Origin: Bacillales bacterium
GTDB taxonomy: Bacteria; Bacillota_I; Bacilli_A; RF39; UBA660
Assembly (NCBI GenBank): GCA_016288305.1
Contig: JAEEYW010000001.1
Span: 1-57,882, forward strand
Reading direction: 5' to 3'
Length of the DNA stretch: 57,882 bases
A model generated the notes under the pieces. It was not told the DNA's origin. It saw only the letters and a program-made list of their open reading frames with translations, and ran no database searches. The position numbers and the translations under genes were made by a program. This document shows, piece by piece, positions 18,726 through 42,160 of this stretch (position 1 is its first letter; each line of letters opens with the position of its first letter).

Positions 18726-20210
18726 ATGATTAGACAATTTGATTTCGAGAAAGTGCCTGTAGTAGAAGTAGTAAATGAAATACTAGTTGATGCAGCTAAA
18801 CGAGGAGCATCTGATATACATTTCGATCCTCTAAGCGATCATATGAAGATAAGAATACGTATTGATGGTTTACTTCAAGATTATTCTGAAGTACCTAATT
18901 CTATAAAGAAAAACTTAATTACACGTATTAAAATCATTTCTAGTATGAACATTACTGAATCAAGATTACCTCAAGATGGCGCTATTAAAACTAGATTACA
19001 AGACATTAACTTGGATTTGCGTGTTTCATGTATTCCAACTAATAATGGCGAAAAAATAGTTATCCGTATTCTTGACTACTCTATGAGTTTAGCTGGTATT
19101 GAAAATTTGGGATTCAGTGAGGAAAACTACCATAAAGTATTAAAAATGATAGAAAAACCAAACGGTATTATATTAGTAACCGGTGCTACAGGTTCCGGTA
19201 AATCAACAACGGTATATTCTATTTTACAACGTTTAAATACTGAACAAGCTAATGTTGTTACAGTTGAGGATCCAGTCGAAATGAGTATTGAAGGAATTAA
19301 CCAAATTCAAACAAATAGTGAAATTGGCTTAACATTCTCCTCTGCTCTACGCTCTATCTTACGTCAAGACCCTAACATCATAATGGTCGGAGAAATTCGT
19401 GATACTGAAACAGCTAAAATAGCCGTTAGAGCTTCAATTACTGGACACTTAGTATTATCTACTATCCATACAAATAACTCATTAAACACTATTGAACGTT
19501 TACTTGATATGGATGTTGAAAGATATTTACTTGCTTCTGCTTTAGAAGGAATTATTTCACAAGTTTTAGCTCGTAAATTATGTCCACATTGTAGAAAATT
19601 AAGAAAAACTAATCAATATGAAAAAGATTTATTTAAAAAAGTTTTAGATAAAGATGTTGATGAAATATATACTACTGAGGGATGCGAACATTGTGGTAAT
19701 GGATACTCTGGACGTATTGCTATCCATGAAGTATTGTTATTCAACCAAGATATTAGAGATGCTATTTCAGCAGGTGTTAGAAAAGATGAATTAAGAACAT
19801 TAGTATATCAATCTGGAGCTAAAACAATGCTTCAAGATGGTTTGGAAAAAGTATTATCAGGTCTTACTACTTTCGAAGAAATTATTAAGTTAATTGAACT
19901 TGAAGGAGATAATAAAGATTCTGGAGGTTTACAACTTGCTTTAAATGATGTTCAAATAGTAAAAAAATCTGAAGAAAATAATGAAGAATTAAATACCACT
20001 GTAGAAAAAAACAGTGAAGAATTAAATAATCCAGTTGAAGAAAATGGCGAAGAATTAAATACAGTTGAAGAAAATACAGAAACAAATGATACAACTGATG
20101 AAACATTTACAAATCCATTTGCTGATGAAGTAAGTAATGAGTTCAATAACCCATTTGCAACATCAACAGAAAGCTATACTAATAGTGAAGATTTATTTAA
20201 TAATTTTTAA
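18726..20210 (+). CDS. Type IV pilus / competence pseudopilus assembly ATPase (GspE/PilB/ComGA family) with acidic C-terminal extension
   Basis: Walker A GATGSGKST, Asp box VTVEDPVE, Walker B IIMVGEIRD, His box TGHLVLSTIHTN, tetracysteine CPHC...CEHC. It has no long N1 domain. About 100 extra acidic residues follow the core. Confidence 0.9.
   Translation: MIRQFDFEKVPVVEVVNEILVDAAKRGASDIHFDPLSDHMKIRIRIDGLLQDYSEVPNSIKKNLITRIKIISSMNITESRLPQDGAIKTRLQDINLDLRVSCIPTNNGEKIVIRILDYSMSLAGIENLGFSEENYHKVLKMIEKPNGIILVTGATGSGKSTTVYSILQRLNTEQANVVTVEDPVEMSIEGINQIQTNSEIGLTFSSALRSILRQDPNIIMVGEIRDTETAKIAVRASITGHLVLSTIHTNNSLNTIERLLDMDVERYLLASALEGIISQVLARKLCPHCRKLRKTNQYEKDLFKKVLDKDVDEIYTTEGCEHCGNGYSGRIAIHEVLLFNQDIRDAISAGVRKDELRTLVYQSGAKTMLQDGLEKVLSGLTTFEEIIKLIELEGDNKDSGGLQLALNDVQIVKKSEENNEELNTTVEKNSEELNNPVEENGEELNTVEENTETNDTTDETFTNPFADEVSNEFNNPFATSTESYTNSEDLFNNF
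19983..20081 (+). repeat. Three imperfect 33-nt tandem repeats inside the ATPase tail
   Basis: GAAGAATTAAATA recurs at 19983, 20016 and 20049, encoding EELNTTVEKNS / EELNNPVEENG / EELNTVEENTE. Confidence 0.8.
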
Positions 20211-21744: not shown

Positions 21745-22947
21745 TTAGAAACTAAACATCAACCAACCTGGTTTGAAAACCATTAATAAACCTATTAAGA
21801 TCATAACGATACCACCAATTAAATGAGATAATTTATTATATTTAGTTGAGATACCAGTTACTTTTAATGTCTTCATAGCGATAGTAAAAACAACAATATC
21901 ATCAATTAAGAAGAATAATATATATAATCCCATATAGAAAGCATATTGCGCTGTTGTTAAATCATTAAGCGCTAAAACTTGCGTAAATATTAATGGTAGA
22001 CCAGATGAACAAGCCAATTCAATTAAGTTAACAGAAATAGCTAATCCTACAACACCAATCAAAGCTAAAGCAAAACTTAATTCACTTTTTAGAAAACTAC
22101 TTTCATCAGTTGTAGCTTTAGCCACAATATCTCTAATTTTAGATAAGATAGATTTACGTCTTTTATTATCAACAACATGACATCCATCATCTTGTTTACG
22201 TTCCTCATAATAATTAATTAAATTAATAGTACCAACAACCAAAGCTACTAATGCTAAAGCTAATCTTATCCATGATACTTGTGTTAAAGTAACAGCCACT
22301 TTTAACCAAGCTGCCATAATAGCTAAGTAAACAAGAGCTGAAGTTATTAAGAATGTTAAACCAATCGTCCACATTTTACGTCTATTCTTCATACCAATAA
22401 TCATTGTTATTAAGAATAGTAAAACCCACATAGCACATGGATTAAAACCATCAATAAAACCTATAAGAGCGGCTACTAATGGTATAGATATTTCGGTTAA
22501 ATCAATATAATAACCAAATATTTCAATAGAATCTATAGTACCCTCTACCATTTTAATATCGGATACATCCTCATCATTTAAAATTTTAGATATAACATCT
22601 ACACTTTTAACTTCAACTTCTTTATCAATTAAATGACTAATAGCTTTTTGTGTTCCAGAACTATAGCCTATAAAATATGTATTACCAATTATTGTAAAAG
22701 GAACTTGTCGATTTGTTATATTTAAAGCTTCTTTAACTTTAGTCATAAGTAAAGCATTCTCTTCTACTTCCATAACTTCATAGGCATGTAATTCAATATT
22801 ATCTAAACTATTTAAATACTCCATTTCGGCTTGACAATGTGTACAATACTTAGAATGAAATAGATATACATCAACCTTGTCTTCAGCATCTACATTAGGC
22901 ACAAAAGCAACTAAACATAATAATATAAAAATTATAATACGTTTCAT
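21745..22947 (-). CDS. Membrane thiol-disulfide oxidoreductase: exported glutaredoxin/thioredoxin-like domain fused to a DsbD/CcdA-like transmembrane domain
   Basis: Signal peptide MKRIIIFILLCLVAFVPNVDA, CTHC redox motif, then a polytopic domain with FNPCAMWVL and a second conserved Cys (ELACSSG). Its ATG overlaps the upstream stop (ATGA). Confidence 0.7.
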   Translation of the reverse strand: MKRIIIFILLCLVAFVPNVDAEDKVDVYLFHSKYCTHCQAEMEYLNSLDNIELHAYEVMEVEENALLMTKVKEALNITNRQVPFTIIGNTYFIGYSSGTQKAISHLIDKEVEVKSVDVISKILNDEDVSDIKMVEGTIDSIEIFGYYIDLTEISIPLVAALIGFIDGFNPCAMWVLLFLITMIIGMKNRRKMWTIGLTFLITSALVYLAIMAAWLKVAVTLTQVSWIRLALALVALVVGTINLINYYEERKQDDGCHVVDNKRRKSILSKIRDIVAKATTDESSFLKSELSFALALIGVVGLAISVNLIELACSSGLPLIFTQVLALNDLTTAQYAFYMGLYILFFLIDDIVVFTIAMKTLKVTGISTKYNKLSHLIGGIVMILIGLLMVFKPGWLMFSF

Positions 22948-23198
22948 TCTATACAACCTTTCAAGAACTCTTTAAGTTCATCTTCATTTTTTTCACCTAT
23001 TAATCTTCCAACTTCTTTTTCACCATCAAAAAGAATAAAAACAGGTAAAATATCTCCAACATTATATTTAGATACAACTTCTTCATCTAAATCATAATCA
23101 TATTCAACACTTTCAATATTTAAAGCTATTTTATCCAATCTTGAACGCATAATTAAACAAGCTGGACACCACATAGCACTTACTCTTACTAATTTCAT
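22944..23198 (-). CDS. Thioredoxin-family protein
   Basis: WCPAC active site, about 84 aa from the ATG at 23198, which overlaps the cysteine desulfurase stop (ATGA). Confidence 0.75.
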   Translation of the reverse strand: MKLVRVSAMWCPACLIMRSRLDKIALNIESVEYDYDLDEEVVSKYNVGDILPVFILFDGEKEVGRLIGEKNEDELKEFLKGCIE

Positions 23199-35142: not shown

Positions 35143-35166
35143 AAAAAAAGGAGAATAATTCTCCCT
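35143..35166 (-). terminator. Rho-independent terminator of the giant pilin gene
   Basis: Minus strand GGGAGAAT..ATTCTCC followed by TTTTTTT. Confidence 0.6.
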
Positions 35167-35175
35167 TAATATGCT

Positions 35176-38100
35176 TTATGAAGCTGGAATATAACATCTT
35201 CTCTCGCCATTTACAGAATACTCTGAACCTTGTGCACAGGCTTTAATTGTTGGAACATAACATCTATATGAACCATTTGTATAATACGTTGAACCTTGTG
35301 AACATGACAAGTATTCATCAGTAGTCCAACCAGTGCACTCATAAGTCGTACAACTTATTAGCCATTCTGTCTGTTGTTTACCGGTATTAGCGCATGTACG
35401 ACCACATTCAACACCAGTATCACTACCAGGACAAACGTCTGAATATGCTCTACACTTGTCATCTATGCATGTAGAGTGCGTTGACCAACCACATGTACAC
35501 TGTGTATATTCATAACTTCCTGTTTGTCGCACAGAGGTACAATAAGTATCACCATATCTTGTATAAGCTTCACCAACATCACATATATACCCATATGATG
35601 AATTGTTTACGAAACTACCTGTTGAACATGTTGTAGTCGGCGTTGGCGCACCAATATCACATATATATCCTAATGATGAATTATACGTTAATGTTCCTGT
35701 TGTACATTTAAATGAAATGGTTGCTGCTTTATAACATCTCATGCCTGAATCATAACCAGAATAATAACTCCATCCCGATGGACACGAATACCTAGTTACA
35801 TATTCACCATTTTCAGAACAGCTTGTAGTCCAACTATATTCGTCACAAGTTCGATAATACCTAACATAACTTGTTGTATTGTAACAAGATGTCGTACTCC
35901 ACCTACAACCTCTTGAATTGTTATATGGAATACTTTCTGAGTCACAGCATTCATAAGTGCCGTCCCAATCCCATTCTCTAGATGAAACCGGATTGTTAGC
36001 TACGCATATATATCCTGTTGAGGTTTCTGTTAAAGTTCCTTCTGAACATGTAACACTTGCTCTCCATATTGCATATAGTTTAGTATTACTAGAAAAACTA
36101 TATGATGTACCAGGATTATGGGTTACTGCACTTGTGCTAGTACCATAGCCCATGAAGATATAACTTCCTTTTGTAAAATTAGTAACTCTTGGTGCTACTG
36201 AACAGCTTGTATCAGTATTATACATATTACATGTACTTGGCTCCATTGTTCCACTACCACCATTAGCGTCATAACTTACTGTTATTGTCTTATATGTTAT
36301 AGGGTACCATGTTATATTATTTGTATTTGCAGATATCATCAAACTTTTTGTTGATGTGTTATAAGCGGTATTATTACTTGTGTCATTAGCACTTACATTA
36401 TACCCTACAACAGTATAACCATCTCTTGTAATCGTAGGCGCTATTAAAGAACAATTCGTACTTTGAGCATGACCATTATATGATGCTACTATAGTACATG
36501 TTTGATCTTCTGCTGTAGATAACGTTGCACCATTAGCATTAAATTTAGCAGTATATGTTATAGAATCTTTTTTAGTTATCGCATAGTATGTCGCACTGTC
36601 ACTTACACTCTTCTCTGTATTTGCACTCCAACTACTTGTTGTTCCATTTTGTGAAGTATTAAATCCTACTACCGTTGGTGTATTACTTGATGCTGTGATT
36701 GTTGGTGATGTAATTGAACAACTTGTTGCTTCATTCCACATATCACATGACAATGTAATAGCTGTTGTTGAGGCAGAGCCGATACTAGTAGCTCCATTTG
36801 GATCAAATGTTATTGTTACTGTTTTTTTCCATATTGCATATAATGTTATGTTGCTATTTGCTGTATACGAAGCACCACTAGCATATGCTACAGTCGTTGT
36901 GTTTCTAGTTGTACCCCATCCTACAAATGTATAACCTGTTCTTGTTGGTATAGTTGAGGTTATATTAGTACTTAAATCTTGTTGTTTTGTAGTACTTGCT
37001 ATACTTCCTGTTCCACCATTTACATCATAACTAATTGTATAGCTATTTACTGCTATTGCAGTACTTGTTGCCGCATTACCAGCTCCTGTTGTTACTGTTA
37101 CTTTATATGTTCCTGCTTCTGCTGTTGTATAACTAATACCTGTTGCTCCTGTTATTGGTGTTGTTCCATTATACCATTGATAGCTATACCCTGATATCGT
37201 TGTTGATGGTGTTACTGTGGCTGTAAAGACATTCTTGTTACTTGATACAGTCTTAGCTACGCTTACTGTTGGTACAGTTTTATCTACCTTGATTGTATAT
37301 GTTCTTGTACTACTATTTCCAGCTTTATCTGTTGTTGTGACAGTGACATTAGTTCCAGAAGTATTACTTGTGATTGATGTAGCACTTATAGTTGTTGAAC
37401 CATGGCCTGATAATGTATCTGTTCCATTTACAGCTGCTAACGTTACATTAGATTTATACCAACTATTTGTTCCTAATGTACCTGTTATTGTTGCTGTACC
37501 TGCTGTTGGAGCAGTCTTATCTAGTTTATATGCATCACTACATATTACTTCACTTGTTTGATTATAATTATCAGTTGCCTGTACACAGATTCTATTATTA
37601 CTACTTTCTGTACTTATTAAACGTGTTGCCGTAGTATTTGTTACAACAGAACCATTTGTTGGATTACATGTATCTGTTGTGGCTGTACATACTTTGAATT
37701 CTTTTATACCATGTCCTGACTGGTCATATACCTCAATGTCAACAACAAAATCATTTCTTGCCCAGCCATTACTATTTATAGCATTTTCATAACCATAATG
37801 TAACTTAAATGTAACGATTGGCGCGCCGGATGATACTGTTACTTTTCTTGTAACTGTTTTAACGTTACCAGCATTATCTTTTGCTGTATATACAACATTA
37901 GTTACACCAGTCTTTGATGTATCTACTGTCTCTGGTGAATGCGTACATGTATCTACTCCACTTGTTGCATCACTACATGTTACACCTGCATCTAGGTTAA
38001 CTGTAGCTCCTACATTCACATTTATATCGGCTATACCATTAATTTCTGGTTTTGTTTTATCAATCTTAAGTGTAGAACTACATATTTTATCACTTACGTT

Positions 38101-41100
38101 ACCAACGTTATCGTATACGATGGTGCATACTTGTGTTGAAGCAACATCTGTTATAGTTATTGCAGTTGATGCAGTTTCTAATGTCGTAGGTGTACAGCCT
38201 GTTCCTTGACACCATTTGTATTCTTTAACGCCTGAGCCAACATCTGATGGTGTCATAGTAACTGCAACATCACTTGTATACCATCCATTACTTCCTGTAG
38301 TACCATCAATATTGAATGACATAGTAGGTTTTATTGCATCTCTCGTAATAGCATACCATGTTTTACCTGTATTACTTGATGATAATGTTATTGTTTTATT
38401 TGTTGCATTGTATGCACTATTTGAAGATGTACTTGCTGAATTTGTATCAAATCCTATAATTGTATAACCACTTCTTGTAATTGTTGGAGCTGTAATGACA
38501 CATGTTGTTGCTTGCGCTTCTCCATTATACGTAGCTACAATTGTACAACTTTGATCACTTGTTGATGATAATGTTGCTCCATTGGCATTAAATTTAGCTA
38601 TATATGTCAACGCACTTTTTGTTGTGATTGCATAATATGCTACATTTCCACTTATACTCTTAGCTGTATTATGATTCCATGATGATGTTGTTGCAGTAGC
38701 TGATGTTCCATATCCAACTACCGTTGGTGTATTACTTGGTGCTATGATTGTTGGTGATGTAATTGAGCAACTTGTTGCTTGCGCTGTTCCATTATATGAC
38801 TCAGCTATTGTACAACTTTGTGTAATACTTGCTTCTGTTGATGCACTTCCACCATTAGGTGTTTGACTTGCTGCACCATTCTTATAGAATGTTACAGTAT
38901 ATGTCACAGCACCTTTTTTAGTTGTTGCATCATATTCGCCATTATCGCTTACTTGTAATTCTGTTTCTGGCGTCCAAGTTTGGGGACCTGACCCTGATTT
39001 TTTAGTCCATCCAACTACGGTTGGTGTATTACTTGAAGCAGTAATCTTAGGTGATGTAATCTTACAATTTGTCGTTGCATTCCACATTTCACATGATAGT
39101 GAAATTGGTATTGTTGAAGAAGAACCGATACTAGATGCACCATTTGGATTAAATGTTATTGTTACTGTCTTCTTCCATATTGCATATAGTGTTGTTCCAC
39201 TATTAGCTGTATATGAAGCACCACTTGCATATGATACTGTTGTTGTTGTAGCACTAGTACCCCATCCCATAAATGTATATCCTGTTCTTGTTGGTACTGC
39301 TGTTGTTATATTAGTACTTAAATCTTGGATTTTTGTAGTTGTTCCTACTGTTCCAGATCCACCATTTACATTATATTCTATTGCGTAACTTCCTATTGTT
39401 ATCGCATTACTTGTTACTGATAGACCTGCTTGCGTTGATACTACTAATTTATATGTTCCTGCTTGTGTTGTCGCATAATTACTACTTGTTGCTCCTGATA
39501 TTTCTATATTATTTCTATACCATTGGTACTTATATCCTGATACAGTTGTTACAGGAGTTACTGTTGATGTTAATACATTTTGATTATTTGATACACTCTT
39601 TGCTATTGTTGCTGATGGTGCGTTTTTGTCTACGCCAATTGTATATAATCTTGTTGCCACATTTCCTGCATTATCTGTCGTTGTTACAGTAACGACCGTA
39701 CCTGATGTATTGTTTGTTATACTTGATGGGCTTACAGTTGTTGAAGCATGTCCTGATAAGCTATCAGATCCATTTATTGCATTTATTGTTACGTTAGAAG
39801 TATACCAATCATTTGTACCGCTAGTACCGGTAAACGTTGCTGTACCTGCTGTTGGGGCTGTCTTATCCAGTTTATATGCATCACTACATATAATAGGACT
39901 TGTCTGATTATAATTATCAGTTGCCTGTACACAAATTCTATTATTTCCGCTTTCTGTGCTTATTAAACGTGTTGTGGTAGTACTTGTCACAATAGAACCG
40001 TTTGTTGGATTACATGTATCTGTTGTCGCTGTACATACTTTGAATTCTTTTATACCATGTCCTGAATTATCTGTTACATTTATTGTTACATAGAAATCAT
40101 TTCTAGCCCATCCATTACTATTTATTGCCCCGGCTGCTGCTGTATAACTTACTGATGGTGCATCTGTTTCTATCGTCACTTTTCTTGTAACTGTTTTAAC
40201 GTTACCAGCATTATCTGTCGCTGTATATACAATATCATGCACTCCTGCTTTTGATGTATCAACTGTTTTAGGATTATAATCTAATTCATATATACCACTA
40301 AGTCCATCTTGAGCAGATGCTTCTAAATTAACTGTGCCATTTTTAGCCACAACTAAATCTCCTATACCTGTAATGATAGGTTTAACTGTATCTACTTTAA
40401 TTGTGCTACTACATAGCTTTTCACTATTATTTCCTGCTTTATCATATGCTACAGAACATACTTGTGTTCCTAAACCATCTGTAATAGAGACTGTCTTTTT
40501 GCCTGTCTCTTTATTTGTAGGATCGCAATTATATCCCGTGCACCATAGATAATAATCTACTCCTGACTCTAAATCAGTAGTTTCAATTTCGACATATACG
40601 TTACTTGTATACCAATTATTATTTCCTTTTGTTCCTGTAATATTATAATTCAAATTTGGTTGTGTTTTATCTACTTTAATTGTATATTCTCTTGTTGATG
40701 TGTTTCCAGCTTTATCTGTTGATGTTACTGTTACTGTAGTACCATTAGTATTATTCGTAATAGAAGCTGTATCAACTATTGTTGTGCTATGTCCTGATAA
40801 AGCATCTGATCCATTGATAGTAGCTATATTGACATTCGATAAATACCAATCACCTATGCCTTTTGTGCCAGTTATTCTGATTGTACCTGCTGTTGGAGCA
40901 GTTTTATCTAATTTATATGCATCACTACATATTACTTCACTTTTTTGCCCATAATTATCTTCTGCTTGGACACAAACTCTATTGTTATTACTTTCTGTAC
41001 TTATTAAACGTGTTGCCGTAGTATTTGTTATTACTGATCCATTTGTTGGATTACATGTATCAGTTGTTGCTGTACACAATCTAAATTCTTTAATACCATG

Positions 41101-42105
41101 TCCTGAATTATCTTTGACATTGACATTTACATAAAAGTTTTCATTAGCCCAACCATTACTATTGATTATGTTATCTGCTATAACAAAATTAACTGTTGGA
41201 GCTTCAGCTGAAACATTAACTTTTCTAGTCAAACTCTTAGTATTTCCAGCTTTATCTACAGCTGTATAAGTAACTGTATGAACACCTGCTTTAGATGTAT
41301 CAATACTTGTTGGTGTATGTGTGAAAGAAGATATTCCACTCGTAACATCTTGAGCACTAGCATTTAGATTTACGCTTCCACCTTTATTTACAACAATATC
41401 ACCAATTCCTGTAATTTCTGGTTTTACAGTATCTATCTTGATTGTATCTGTACATATTTTATTACTATTGTTAACAGCCATATCATATGCTATAACACAT
41501 ACTTGTGTTCCTACATTATCTGTAAGTGATATTGTCTTGTTTCCTGTTTCTCTATTAACCGGTTCACAATCCATACCCGTACACCATGTATAAAAATTTA
41601 ACCCCGATTCATTATCAACTACACTTATTTCAACATATGCAGATGTGGTATACCAATTATTGTTACCTAAAACACCTGTTACATTATAAGTTACAATAGG
41701 AGCATTATTATCAACACCTAAATAACCTAATGTGCAGTCATCTGTTTTTTCTAGATCACCATAAAAATTTTTAACATAGCATGAACCATCTAATCTAATA
41801 GATAATGCTGTTAAACCTTTACTATTTGCATATAATTCACCATCAGCTTGAGGTTTATTATCAATACTAACATTGTCATAAATGTTATTTAATTGTTTAA
41901 CATCCTCTTTTTTATATGGATCAATCATACTTTCAGCATAATAATTTTCTGCTGCCCTTATCAAATTAGTAGCCGTCAGCATATTAGCCCTATCTCTTAA
42001 TGTTGCAATAACATTAATAGTTATAGGTGTAGCTATTAAAGCCACTACTGCTAGTATAATAACTACTGTTATTAATTCAATTAATGTAAGTCCCTTTTTT
42101 TTCAT
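35176..42105 (-). CDS. Giant modular type IV pilin-like surface protein (prepilin-type N-terminus plus about 2,150-aa adhesin-like passenger)
   Basis: The probable start is the ATG at 42105 (GGTGA RBS; the track ORF extends to 42141). MKKKG|LTLIELITVVIILAVVALIATPI has Glu at +5. A small pilin head is closed by a Cys pair. Then come three supermodules of about 350 aa of beta-sandwich/Ig-like domains (NNWYTSNVYVEI..D.ESG, DUF5011/HYR-like GIGD..V..G..VNL.A.AQD..SGI....VDTSKAGVH.V.YTA.D.AGN), Listeria-Bacteroides (Flg_new-like) repeats (Y.I.Y.VNGG.G...PTRTGYTF.GWGT...LYAIWKK) and a 28-Cys tail. There is no LPXTG motif and no C-terminal TM segment. Confidence 0.85.
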   Translation of the reverse strand: MKKKGLTLIELITVVIILAVVALIATPITINVIATLRDRANMLTATNLIRAAENYYAESMIDPYKKEDVKQLNNIYDNVSIDNKPQADGELYANSKGLTALSIRLDGSCYVKNFYGDLEKTDDCTLGYLGVDNNAPIVTYNVTGVLGNNNWYTTSAYVEISVVDNESGLNFYTWCTGMDCEPVNRETGNKTISLTDNVGTQVCVIAYDMAVNNSNKICTDTIKIDTVKPEITGIGDIVVNKGGSVNLNASAQDVTSGISSFTHTPTSIDTSKAGVHTVTYTAVDKAGNTKSLTRKVNVSAEAPTVNFVIADNIINSNGWANENFYVNVNVKDNSGHGIKEFRLCTATTDTCNPTNGSVITNTTATRLISTESNNNRVCVQAEDNYGQKSEVICSDAYKLDKTAPTAGTIRITGTKGIGDWYLSNVNIATINGSDALSGHSTTIVDTASITNNTNGTTVTVTSTDKAGNTSTREYTIKVDKTQPNLNYNITGTKGNNNWYTSNVYVEIETTDLESGVDYYLWCTGYNCDPTNKETGKKTVSITDGLGTQVCSVAYDKAGNNSEKLCSSTIKVDTVKPIITGIGDLVVAKNGTVNLEASAQDGLSGIYELDYNPKTVDTSKAGVHDIVYTATDNAGNVKTVTRKVTIETDAPSVSYTAAAGAINSNGWARNDFYVTINVTDNSGHGIKEFKVCTATTDTCNPTNGSIVTSTTTTRLISTESGNNRICVQATDNYNQTSPIICSDAYKLDKTAPTAGTATFTGTSGTNDWYTSNVTINAINGSDSLSGHASTTVSPSSITNNTSGTVVTVTTTDNAGNVATRLYTIGVDKNAPSATIAKSVSNNQNVLTSTVTPVTTVSGYKYQWYRNNIEISGATSSNYATTQAGTYKLVVSTQAGLSVTSNAITIGSYAIEYNVNGGSGTVGTTTKIQDLSTNITTAVPTRTGYTFMGWGTSATTTTVSYASGASYTANSGTTLYAIWKKTVTITFNPNGASSIGSSSTIPISLSCEMWNATTNCKITSPKITASSNTPTVVGWTKKSGSGPQTWTPETELQVSDNGEYDATTKKGAVTYTVTFYKNGAASQTPNGGSASTEASITQSCTIAESYNGTAQATSCSITSPTIIAPSNTPTVVGYGTSATATTSSWNHNTAKSISGNVAYYAITTKSALTYIAKFNANGATLSSTSDQSCTIVATYNGEAQATTCVITAPTITRSGYTIIGFDTNSASTSSNSAYNATNKTITLSSSNTGKTWYAITRDAIKPTMSFNIDGTTGSNGWYTSDVAVTMTPSDVGSGVKEYKWCQGTGCTPTTLETASTAITITDVASTQVCTIVYDNVGNVSDKICSSTLKIDKTKPEINGIADINVNVGATVNLDAGVTCSDATSGVDTCTHSPETVDTSKTGVTNVVYTAKDNAGNVKTVTRKVTVSSGAPIVTFKLHYGYENAINSNGWARNDFVVDIEVYDQSGHGIKEFKVCTATTDTCNPTNGSVVTNTTATRLISTESSNNRICVQATDNYNQTSEVICSDAYKLDKTAPTAGTATITGTLGTNSWYKSNVTLAAVNGTDTLSGHGSTTISATSITSNTSGTNVTVTTTDKAGNSSTRTYTIKVDKTVPTVSVAKTVSSNKNVFTATVTPSTTISGYSYQWYNGTTPITGATGISYTTAEAGTYKVTVTTGAGNAATSTAIAVNSYTISYDVNGGTGSIASTTKQQDLSTNITSTIPTRTGYTFVGWGTTRNTTTVAYASGASYTANSNITLYAIWKKTVTITFDPNGATSIGSASTTAITLSCDMWNEATSCSITSPTITASSNTPTVVGFNTSQNGTTSSWSANTEKSVSDSATYYAITKKDSITYTAKFNANGATLSTAEDQTCTIVASYNGHAQSTNCSLIAPTITRDGYTVVGYNVSANDTSNNTAYNTSTKSLMISANTNNITWYPITYKTITVSYDANGGSGTMEPSTCNMYNTDTSCSVAPRVTNFTKGSYIFMGYGTSTSAVTHNPGTSYSFSSNTKLYAIWRASVTCSEGTLTETSTGYICVANNPVSSREWDWDGTYECCDSESIPYNNSRGCRWSTTSCYNTTSYVRYYRTCDEYSWTTSCSENGEYVTRYSCPSGWSYYSGYDSGMRCYKAATISFKCTTGTLTYNSSLGYICDIGAPTPTTTCSTGSFVNNSSYGYICDVGEAYTRYGDTYCTSVRQTGSYEYTQCTCGWSTHSTCIDDKCRAYSDVCPGSDTGVECGRTCANTGKQQTEWLISCTTYECTGWTTDEYLSCSQGSTYYTNGSYRCYVPTIKACAQGSEYSVNGERRCYIPAS
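36060..37269 (-). repeat. Intragenic block B3 (Ig-like SGYSYQWY domain, Flg_new and Cys-pair modules)
   Basis: Collinear with B2 (for example 36945-37045 against 39290-39390). Confidence 0.75.
37270..38335 (-). repeat. Intragenic supermodule repeat A3
   Basis: Runs from AIKPTMSFNIDG to KVDKTVP. Its landmark lies about 2,345 nt from the A2 copy. Confidence 0.8.
38336..39615 (-). repeat. Intragenic block B2 (Ig-like SGYKYQWY domain, Flg_new repeat, three Cys-pair Flg_new-like modules)
   Basis: Collinear with B3. Together A2+B2 and A3+B3 form a tandem duplication of about 2.35 kb. Confidence 0.75.
39616..40656 (-). repeat. Intragenic supermodule repeat A2
   Basis: Runs from NLNYNITG to GVDKNAP. 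Its KLDKTAPTAGT landmark lies about 1,045 nt from the A1 copy. Confidence 0.8.
40657..41715 (-). repeat. Intragenic supermodule repeat A1 (about 1.05 kb)
   Basis: Runs from VDNNAPIVTYNVTG to KVDKTQP. Shares long stretches of roughly 85-90 percent nucleotide identity (by eye) with A2 and A3, for example around 40940-41120. Confidence 0.8.
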
Positions 42106-42131
42106 ATTATCACCGTACCCTATATAATAGT

Positions 42132-42160
42132 AGTATACCATTTTTTTTAATTAATTTCAA
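42132..42160 (-). promoter_or_regulatory. Strong sigma-A-type promoter of the giant pilin gene
   Basis: Minus strand: TTGAAA (42160-42155), a 17-nt spacer, then TATACT (42137-42132) preceded by TGG (extended -10-like). GGTGATAATATG follows. Confidence 0.6.

Follow-up and report, generated by a model that had tools for sequence, protein, structure and literature searches.

A giant modular type IV pilin, encoded on the minus strand of a 57,882-nucleotide stretch of DNA (hereafter the window: JAEEYW010000001.1 positions 1-57,882, assembly GCA_016288305.1, Bacillales bacterium), ends in 294 residues that form what we read as an undescribed, disulfide-rich tip at the far end of the protein, with a probable adhesive function. 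This Cys-rich C-terminus covers residues 2028-2321 of a 2321-codon open reading frame (ORF), corresponding to window positions 35179-36060. A first-pass annotation of the window had counted 28 cysteines, an even number, in some 290 C-terminal residues together with abundant Tyr, Ser, Thr, Gly and Trp, and both observations hold: the last 294 residues contain 28 Cys (9.5%, as compared with 2.0% elsewhere in the protein and 1.2% for the genome's long ORFs) next to 10.9% Tyr, 13.6% Ser, 15.0% Thr, 8.8% Gly and 2.7% Trp. The five copies of a C-x2-G-[ST] hairpin motif that it reported are exact letter for letter (residues 2032, 2146, 2172, 2280 and 2302), the final two being followed by YVP and YIP as described, and their number is beyond chance: the highest count in 20,000 shufflings of these residues was 2 copies, well short of 5, and this was unchanged when the Cys positions were held fixed. 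A sixth hairpin, at residues 2120-2136, had been overlooked, and the region, which had been taken for a single knot-like domain, is in fact two modules of one plan. The other half of that claim fared better, as dense disulfide bonding is the best reading of the tip, with the individual bonds predicted from sequence.

Two modules and six hairpins

Each module runs from one or two hairpins through a Cys-rich core to one or two further hairpins. Module 1 comprises residues 2032-2136 and module 2 residues 2146-2316, and their parts, all on the minus strand of the window, are as follows.

36004..36048, residues 2032-2046: hairpin 1, N-terminal frame of module 1, CSEGTLTETSTGYIC
35785..36003, residues 2047-2119: variable core of module 1, 73 residues with 6 Cys
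35734..35784, residues 2120-2136: hairpin 2, C-terminal frame of module 1, CPSGWSYYSGYDSGMRC then YKAAT
35659..35706, residues 2146-2161: hairpin 3, start of module 2, CTTGTLTYNSSLGYIC, modelled as beta-strands
35581..35628, residues 2172-2187: hairpin 4, module 2, CSTGSFVNNSSYGYIC
35305..35580, residues 2188-2279: variable core of module 2, 92 residues with 10 Cys
35260..35304, residues 2280-2294: hairpin 5, module 2, CSQGSTYYTNGSYRC then YVP
35194..35238, residues 2302-2316: hairpin 6, module 2, CAQGSEYSVNGERRC then YIPAS and the stop codon

Module 1 has the two frames that define the module, an N-terminal C-x2-G-x-L...[YW]-I-C and a C-terminal C-[PD]-x-G-W-x2-Y-S-G...C-Y, around a core with an even number of cysteines. 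Module 2 fits the same hairpin-core-hairpin plan with its frames doubled, as two CxTG..GYIC hairpins precede the core and two CxQGS..NG..RCY(V/I)P hairpins follow it. Hairpin 1 is modelled as a beta-meander, and its C, G, L, I and C are invariant over 10 homologues. Hairpin 2 (YSCPSGWSYYSGYDSGMRCYKA, residues 2120-2136) has a slightly longer loop and is the best conserved of the six in relatives, its C-[PD]-x-G-W-x2-Y-S-G...C-Y pattern being invariant among the homologues.

Conserved frames, variable cores and divergent paralog tips

When 10 copies of module 1 are aligned, the four framing Cys, G-x-L, [YW]-I-C and the hairpin 2 pattern are invariant or nearly so, and the cores between them differ in length (~55-100 residues), sequence and Cys positions. 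Conservation of the Cys positions in homologues, which the first-pass annotation had proposed as a check on its idea, is thus found for the four framing Cys of module 1 and not for the core Cys, which shift.

The paralogs within the same genome repeat this pattern, as identity amounts to 60-87% in the preceding Flg_new module, 37-86% in the hairpins and 18-29% in the cores, the latter compared over their full length. Compared as DNA, the stalk (36060-42141) has 70-82% identity with sequence on at least 8 further contigs of the genome; this identity ends at ~35980-36060, the domain border, and the tip DNA has no match anywhere in the genome. The paralog tips, taken as the sequence past the last Flg_new module, all differ, with those of contigs C22 and C64 alike at their start and end. 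Altogether at least 15 ORFs of the genome have the prepilin head and/or the common Ig/Flg_new stalk, adding up to ~13,900 codons or ~4% of the assembly. They lie on contigs C7, C9, C10, C16, C18, C22, C29, C37, C41, C43, C53, C64 and C67 and in the window at 35176-42141, and several are broken at contig ends, which makes the number of paralog genes uncertain.

Outside this group relatives are scarce. A HMMER search over 1.84 billion representative proteins returned, besides the protein itself, only the clusters P0003 (557 aa) and P0004 (750 aa), which are pilin-headed and match query residues 1-119, that is module 1 alone, at their extreme C-termini; nothing among these representatives matched past query residue 119, leaving module 2 without a relative there. 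A word-indexed search of 5.8 billion proteins found, among large proteins, only the giant pilin itself. The genome holds two further copies of module 1, on C18 (at the contig edge) and C37, and no nucleotide or protein match to module 2 elsewhere. In the C37 copy (G000:C37:25178-25790, minus strand) the module is followed by a Cys-poor, Tyr/Asn/Gly-rich domain of ~200 residues with no Pfam match. A metagenome scan added L018 and L022 (~440 aa, with a Sec signal) and L020, all of which end in the module, and the copy in L022 had three further related clusters only. Matches to a module 1 profile, mostly weak, came from 8 of 399 genomes of the same family, and a pattern scan of genome contigs with the module alignment gave no confirmed relative. 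By these searches module 1 appears to be a very rare C-terminal module and module 2 to be unique to the giant pilin.

The rest of the protein is less isolated. The pilin head and Ig part have relatives in 91 of 400 family genomes, often several per genome and up to ~2,200 residues long, so large modular pilins seem to be a habit of the lineage in which the tip of the giant pilin is rare. The last Flg_new segment has no match in two genomes of the same genus, though the pilin head and Ig part match there. In another genus, a 685-aa pilin-headed protein (L110, G510:C2:342137-346339), one of four paralogs in its genome, has a hairpin-type Cys-rich tail with 18 Cys in the last 250 residues.

Disulfides or metal sites

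Each of the eight modules examined has an even number of Cys (10, 18, 14, 10, 12, 10, 14 and 14), as has each of the six paralog tips (10, 14, 18, 28, 10 and 20), though the number varies freely. Within the 294-residue tip no two Cys are separated by a gap of two (no CxxC), and there is a single His. Taken together, the even counts, the absence of CxxC and the single His argue for disulfides rather than metal sites. The stalk gives a similar picture, as its 40 Cys all fall into 20 local pairs with a spacing of 4-15 residues, so that each of the 68 Cys of the giant pilin is pairable. The conserved Cys pairs noted earlier in the Flg_new modules are real (1017/1026, 1110/1125, 1199/1214, 1799/1808, 1882/1897 and 1971/1980) and are spaced by 8 or 14 residues, not by the 10-13 first given.

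Two proteins of the genome may help to make such bonds. The first (L103, G000:C45:5460-6290, minus strand) is a membrane-anchored protein of 270 aa with two thioredoxin-like parts, and it passes the Pfam cut-offs for Thioredoxin_2 and Thioredoxin with matches mainly on the second part. Its CGYC and CGHC are what we take to be DsbC-type and PDI-type active-site motifs. The second, encoded in the window at 21745-22956 on the minus strand, has 403 aa, a signal peptide, an extracytoplasmic glutaredoxin/thioredoxin-like domain with CTHC, and a polytopic membrane part with conserved Cys in GFNPCAMW and ELACSSG. Pfam gives only a weak glutaredoxin match for it. By its motifs it looks like a fused CcdA/DsbD-type electron conduit and redox domain, and it may have a role in handling the many extracytoplasmic disulfides.

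Fold of the tip and its likeness to EGF-type hairpins

The first-pass annotation had recognised no known family in the region, and this is borne out: the 299-residue C-terminus has no sequence match in Pfam, NCBIfam, PHROGs or the PDB chains. Two AlphaFold runs, one of the whole region with 7 sequences and one of module 1 with 10 sequences, modelled the hairpins as confident beta-meanders (predicted local distance difference test, pLDDT, 77-92). Modelled strands lie directly before and after the low-confidence core, an arrangement suggestive of paired frames with the core as an insert between them. Foldseek searches of the PDB with both models returned nothing at E<=0.001, a result that says little because the models are of low confidence outside the hairpins; for the first model the best-ranked rows, none of them significant, were the EGF repeats of Delta-like, Jagged and Serrate and receptors of the TNFR family.

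The module 1 profile also matches proteins of sister genomes that have an N-terminal transmembrane anchor and tandem YxCPxGY..GSG..KCYK hairpins, the L007 alignment covering profile positions 5-130 and with them almost the whole module. These tandem-hairpin proteins are the following.

L007:934-2778: no family above cut-off
L008:1066-2601, minus strand: no family above cut-off
L009:373-2493, minus strand: no family above cut-off
L011:505-2328, minus strand: passes Pfam cEGF (39 bits, cut-off 26.6) and Sushi (27.6 bits)

This tandem-hairpin family has a pilin-like head region and a common C-terminal motif, Y-x-Y-x-W-S..L-[ED]-G-W-x-x-T-G-x-T-R. Its relatives in the genome of the giant pilin are C10:24003-25332, which has an RsgI_M-like N-terminal part, and C73:7667-9644. 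In favour of an EGF-like hairpin, hhalign of the hairpin 2 profile against the tandem CPxGY hairpins gives a probability of 98%, a value that is inflated by the choice of both alignments by pattern.

As regards the six hairpins of the tip, the EGF-like pattern is present in each copy and strands are predicted on both sides (pLDDT 77-92), the Cys-Cys contact itself being putative. As judged by pattern and model, the hairpin would work like an EGF-type disulfide hairpin, yet the tip cannot be filed in that family.

Carrier protein, locus and host

The gene and its main parts are listed here, all on the minus strand of the window.

35176..42141: giant modular type IV pilin gene, 2321-codon ORF with TAA stop, with Pfam and NCBIfam matches
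42031..42105: class III (prepilin) signal peptide and hydrophobic alpha1-N, MKKKG / LTLIELITVVIILAVVALIATP (the slash marks the predicted cleavage site)
36061..42030: pilin head and ~1,990-residue Ig-like/Flg_new stalk, 40 Cys, common to the paralogs
35143..35166: terminator-like hairpin and T-run after the TAA, GGGAGAATTATTCTCC TTTTTTT, read in the sequence

The likely true start is M13 at 42105, which gives a protein of 2309 aa, equal in length to database record P0002. Its prepilin signal has Gly at -1 and Glu at +5 and passes the cut-offs of both PF07963 (22.5 bits, cut-off 21.2) and TIGR02532 (21.2 bits, cut-off 16.3). The first-pass annotation had placed the Cys-rich region in the most distal part of the molecule, and the region is indeed furthest from this N-terminal prepilin-type anchor. 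Pfam matches along the protein are N_methyl, Bact_surface_Ig-like, HYR and Flg_new, and NCBIfam matches are IV_pilin_GFxxxE, OmpL47-type barrel and List_Bact_rpt; the stalk modules match PF09479/TIGR02543 and Bact_surface_Ig-like. On these matches the carrier falls within the modular type IV pilins as that term is used in PMC8179133.

Assembly machinery for such a pilin is present in the host genome, since contig C53 encodes an A24 prepilin peptidase (Peptidase_A24, 53.3 bits) and PilC (T2SSF, 113 bits). A putative PilB-type ATPase is annotated in the window at 18726-20210. Cleavage, N-methylation and incorporation of the giant pilin into a filament are predicted from its signal and from this machinery. 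The assembly itself comprises 1.02 Mb in 73 contigs, is 94.9% complete and has a guanine-plus-cytosine (GC) content of ~26%. The closest relatives of its uppS come from uncultured gut metagenome-assembled genomes (labelled Bacilli, Tenericutes or Mollicutes bacterium) of rabbit, mouse, goat and human (Hadza), and a cotE gene is present in the window.

Downstream of the terminator-like hairpin lie uppS, then cdsA, then rseP (an M50 protease gene). Over 80 related loci the gene upstream of uppS is variable and is pilin-like in only 2, which makes the position of the giant pilin upstream of uppS lineage-specific; the usual gene there in related genomes is an ORF of ~175 aa. The GC content of the giant gene (window 36001-40000) is 35-36% as compared with ~24-29% in most of the surrounding window. 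This GC difference, the lack of a match to the last Flg_new segment in two genomes of the same genus and the uppS neighbours are compatible with a lineage-specific insertion of the giant gene.

Long internal repeats between 36400 and 41700 of the window are ~70-74% identical over 0.9-1.6 kb by blastn (36526-38156 versus 38872-40487, 73.7%). Two other readings of the locus were rejected: a gene on the opposite strand, where no ORF of at least 80 aa exists, and an alternative genetic code, as TGA is the stop codon of 62 of 490 long ORFs and translation table 11 applies.

Proposed function and alternative explanations

We propose, with moderate confidence, that the region is the disulfide-stabilised distal tip of a giant pilin-anchored fibril, in which a clasp of hairpins presents a variable, disulfide-knotted insert. 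In such a model the prepilin-type signal would export the protein and be cut by the A24 peptidase of the genome, and the N-terminal hydrophobic helix would hold the protein either in the membrane or in a type IV filament, in the latter case most probably at the filament tip. The Ig-like/Flg_new stalk of ~2,000 residues, with modules stapled by local Cys pairs, would keep the last 294 residues far from the cell. The EGF-like-type hairpins (C-x2-G-[STW]...C) that open and close each module may then pack into a small conserved sheet, the 'clasp', holding an insert of 70-90 residues that would be knotted by 3 to 5 further disulfides, would be free to change in sequence, length and Cys positions, and is the proposed binding surface. 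With paralogs that combine one stalk with different tips, the cell would have a range of specificities to draw on. By analogy the tip most likely serves in adhesion or receptor binding, given that it lies at the free end, that modular pilins provide a precedent and that the paralogs have conserved stalks and variable tips.

Several observations weigh against this proposal. The disulfides of the tip are deduced from the sequence in an uncultured gut anaerobe, neither DsbB nor VKOR was found in the 94.9%-complete genome, its only DsbA-type match (Thioredoxin_4) is below the cut-off of that family, and a crude genome-wide count of exported-like proteins gives 40 with even and 39 with odd numbers of Cys, which shows no even bias but is in itself uninformative. 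The cores came out unmodelled from AlphaFold (pLDDT 20-45, with 30-45 for the module 1 core). As for the hairpins, the 299-residue C-terminus has no cEGF, EGF or Sushi match in Pfam even at E<=10; the hhalign probability of 98% is, as said, inflated; and a hidden Markov model of 36 tandem CPxGY hairpins scored the tip no better than 2,000 shuffles, a test made uninformative by the very short model, differing loop lengths and interference from bias correction. Ligand binding, for its part, is a deduction from the position of the tip, from precedent and from the pattern among the paralogs. Finally, L018 and L022 are ordinary Sec-signal proteins that have the module at the extreme C-terminus and no other visible anchor, so that an attachment role for the module would also fit.

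If the module does serve surface attachment or self-association, it would bind the own wall or surface layer or bundle stalks, with no foreign ligand involved, and the extreme C-terminus is the usual site of non-covalent wall-binding modules in monoderm bacteria. We nevertheless consider this improbable, as the pilin-headed and transmembrane-anchored carriers already possess an N-terminal anchor, known wall-binding modules are conserved whereas the tip cores are hypervariable, and module 2 is unique to one protein. The variability of the cores could instead reflect a lack of constraint, with the tip being a purely structural end-cap, a protease- or shear-resistant terminator of a long gut fibril that has no specific ligand. 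The conservation of the framing hairpins and not of the cores would be explained by such a cap, as would cores that are rich in Ser, Thr, Tyr and Gly, of low complexity and beyond modelling, and the position of the module at the very C-terminus in most relatives. A cap could, on the other hand, do without 70-100 residues and their 6-10 carefully paired Cys, the six paralogs keep long and differing tips with even Cys counts, and the module is not always terminal, being followed by the ~200-residue domain on C37 and by a second module in the giant pilin; on balance an end-cap alone seems unlikely to us.

The remaining two explanations are poorly supported. Very high Cys density (9.5%) could point to a metal-binding domain with a Zn or Fe-S cysteine cluster, and a zinc site is present in a clostridial minor pilin. 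The spacing of the tip does not allow for much of this, as it has no Cys pair spaced by two, one His in 294 residues and no CxxC or CxxH knuckles at conserved positions, the hallmark of zinc ribbons and Fe-S sites. Core Cys counts (6, 10, 10, 6, 8, 6, 10 and 10) are mostly not multiples of four, core Cys positions are unconserved, and the location is extracytoplasmic. A match to a cytoplasmic or metal-binding domain, which the first-pass annotation had named as the finding that would overturn its idea, was looked for in Pfam and NCBIfam and none turned up, leaving a metal cluster very improbable. The sharp break between a conserved stalk and unrelated paralog tips is also reminiscent of polymorphic C-terminal toxins such as those of contact-dependent inhibition or Rhs systems, whose toxic tips vary and are delivered by a stalk that is conserved. 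Such a toxin is hardly credible here, since the terminator is followed by uppS, cdsA and rseP and no immunity-like gene, the tip has no toxin-family or PADLOC/PHROG-type match, and toxins acting in the cytoplasm of a target would not be expected to have disulfide-dense tips.

The proposal of a distal, ligand-binding tip can be carried further, to a possibility that we put forward tentatively and hold to be rather doubtful as it stands: small-genome gut Bacilli may carry a multigene repertoire of pilin-anchored fibrils with exchangeable 'display' tip cassettes on a recombination-prone stalk, and the module may be a new class of variable receptor-binding scaffold. If true, the logic of the display tips would be comparable to that of phage receptor-binding tips or variable surface antigens, and attachment of these metabolically dependent bacteria to a given host surface or partner microbe would be decided by the tips. 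Whichever partner is involved, the tips are natural candidates for finding it and for use as cultivation baits.

Comparison with known systems

The cysteine content of the giant pilin sets it apart from what is known of related secretomes. In aerobic Firmicutes cysteine is largely kept out of exported proteins (Daniels et al. 2010, PMC2823432), and an exported giant pilin with 68 Cys is a clear exception. This implies that the lineage forms and handles numerous disulfides outside the cytoplasm and does so without DsbB or VKOR.

Among known extracellular folds the hairpins most resemble those of the EGF type (cEGF PF12662, Sushi PF00084) and of TNFR-like repeats, which are likewise short, disulfide-closed beta-hairpins of the form Y-x-C-x2-G-[YW]...C that occur in tandem in extracellular proteins. 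In contrast to these, the loops in the tip of the giant pilin are longer (8-15 residues), the six-Cys EGF pattern and the calcium-binding consensus are absent, and the hairpins frame a large variable insert and do not form a regular array. The stalk in turn is built like that of the giant Flg_new (Listeria-Bacteroides repeat) surface proteins of Bacillota, from PF09479/TIGR02543 and Bact_surface_Ig-like modules, but the protein differs from them in having a Cys pair per module and a predicted anchor that is a prepilin helix where they have an LPXTG or wall-binding module. With a prepilin helix as the anchor the polarity would be reversed and the C-terminus would be the free end.

The closest precedent is provided by modular type IV pilins. 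Pilins with grafted adhesive modules are established (PMC8179133), and those surveyed by Raynaud et al. 2021 include PilB (vWA) and PilC (lectin) of Streptococcus sanguinis and CofB of enterotoxigenic Escherichia coli (ETEC), the most extreme multi-domain pilin named in the survey having 860 aa (PMC8179133). The giant pilin shares with them an N-terminal class III signal and pilin module, functional modules grafted C-terminally, pilus machinery in the genome, and an expected position at the filament tip with an adhesive role. It differs in its size (2,309 aa versus 860 aa, ~2.7 times as long), in its Ig-like/Flg_new stalk of ~2,000 residues, in a tip that is an undescribed and probably disulfide-rich module and not a vWA, lectin or beta-sandwich domain, and in the presence of several paralogs with a common stalk and different tips. 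With pilin and stalk ORFs making up ~4% of a 1.02-Mb genome, attachment is probably central to the life of these auxotrophy-prone gut bacteria, and the giant pilin extends the modular pilins by a tip module that is absent from the domain databases.

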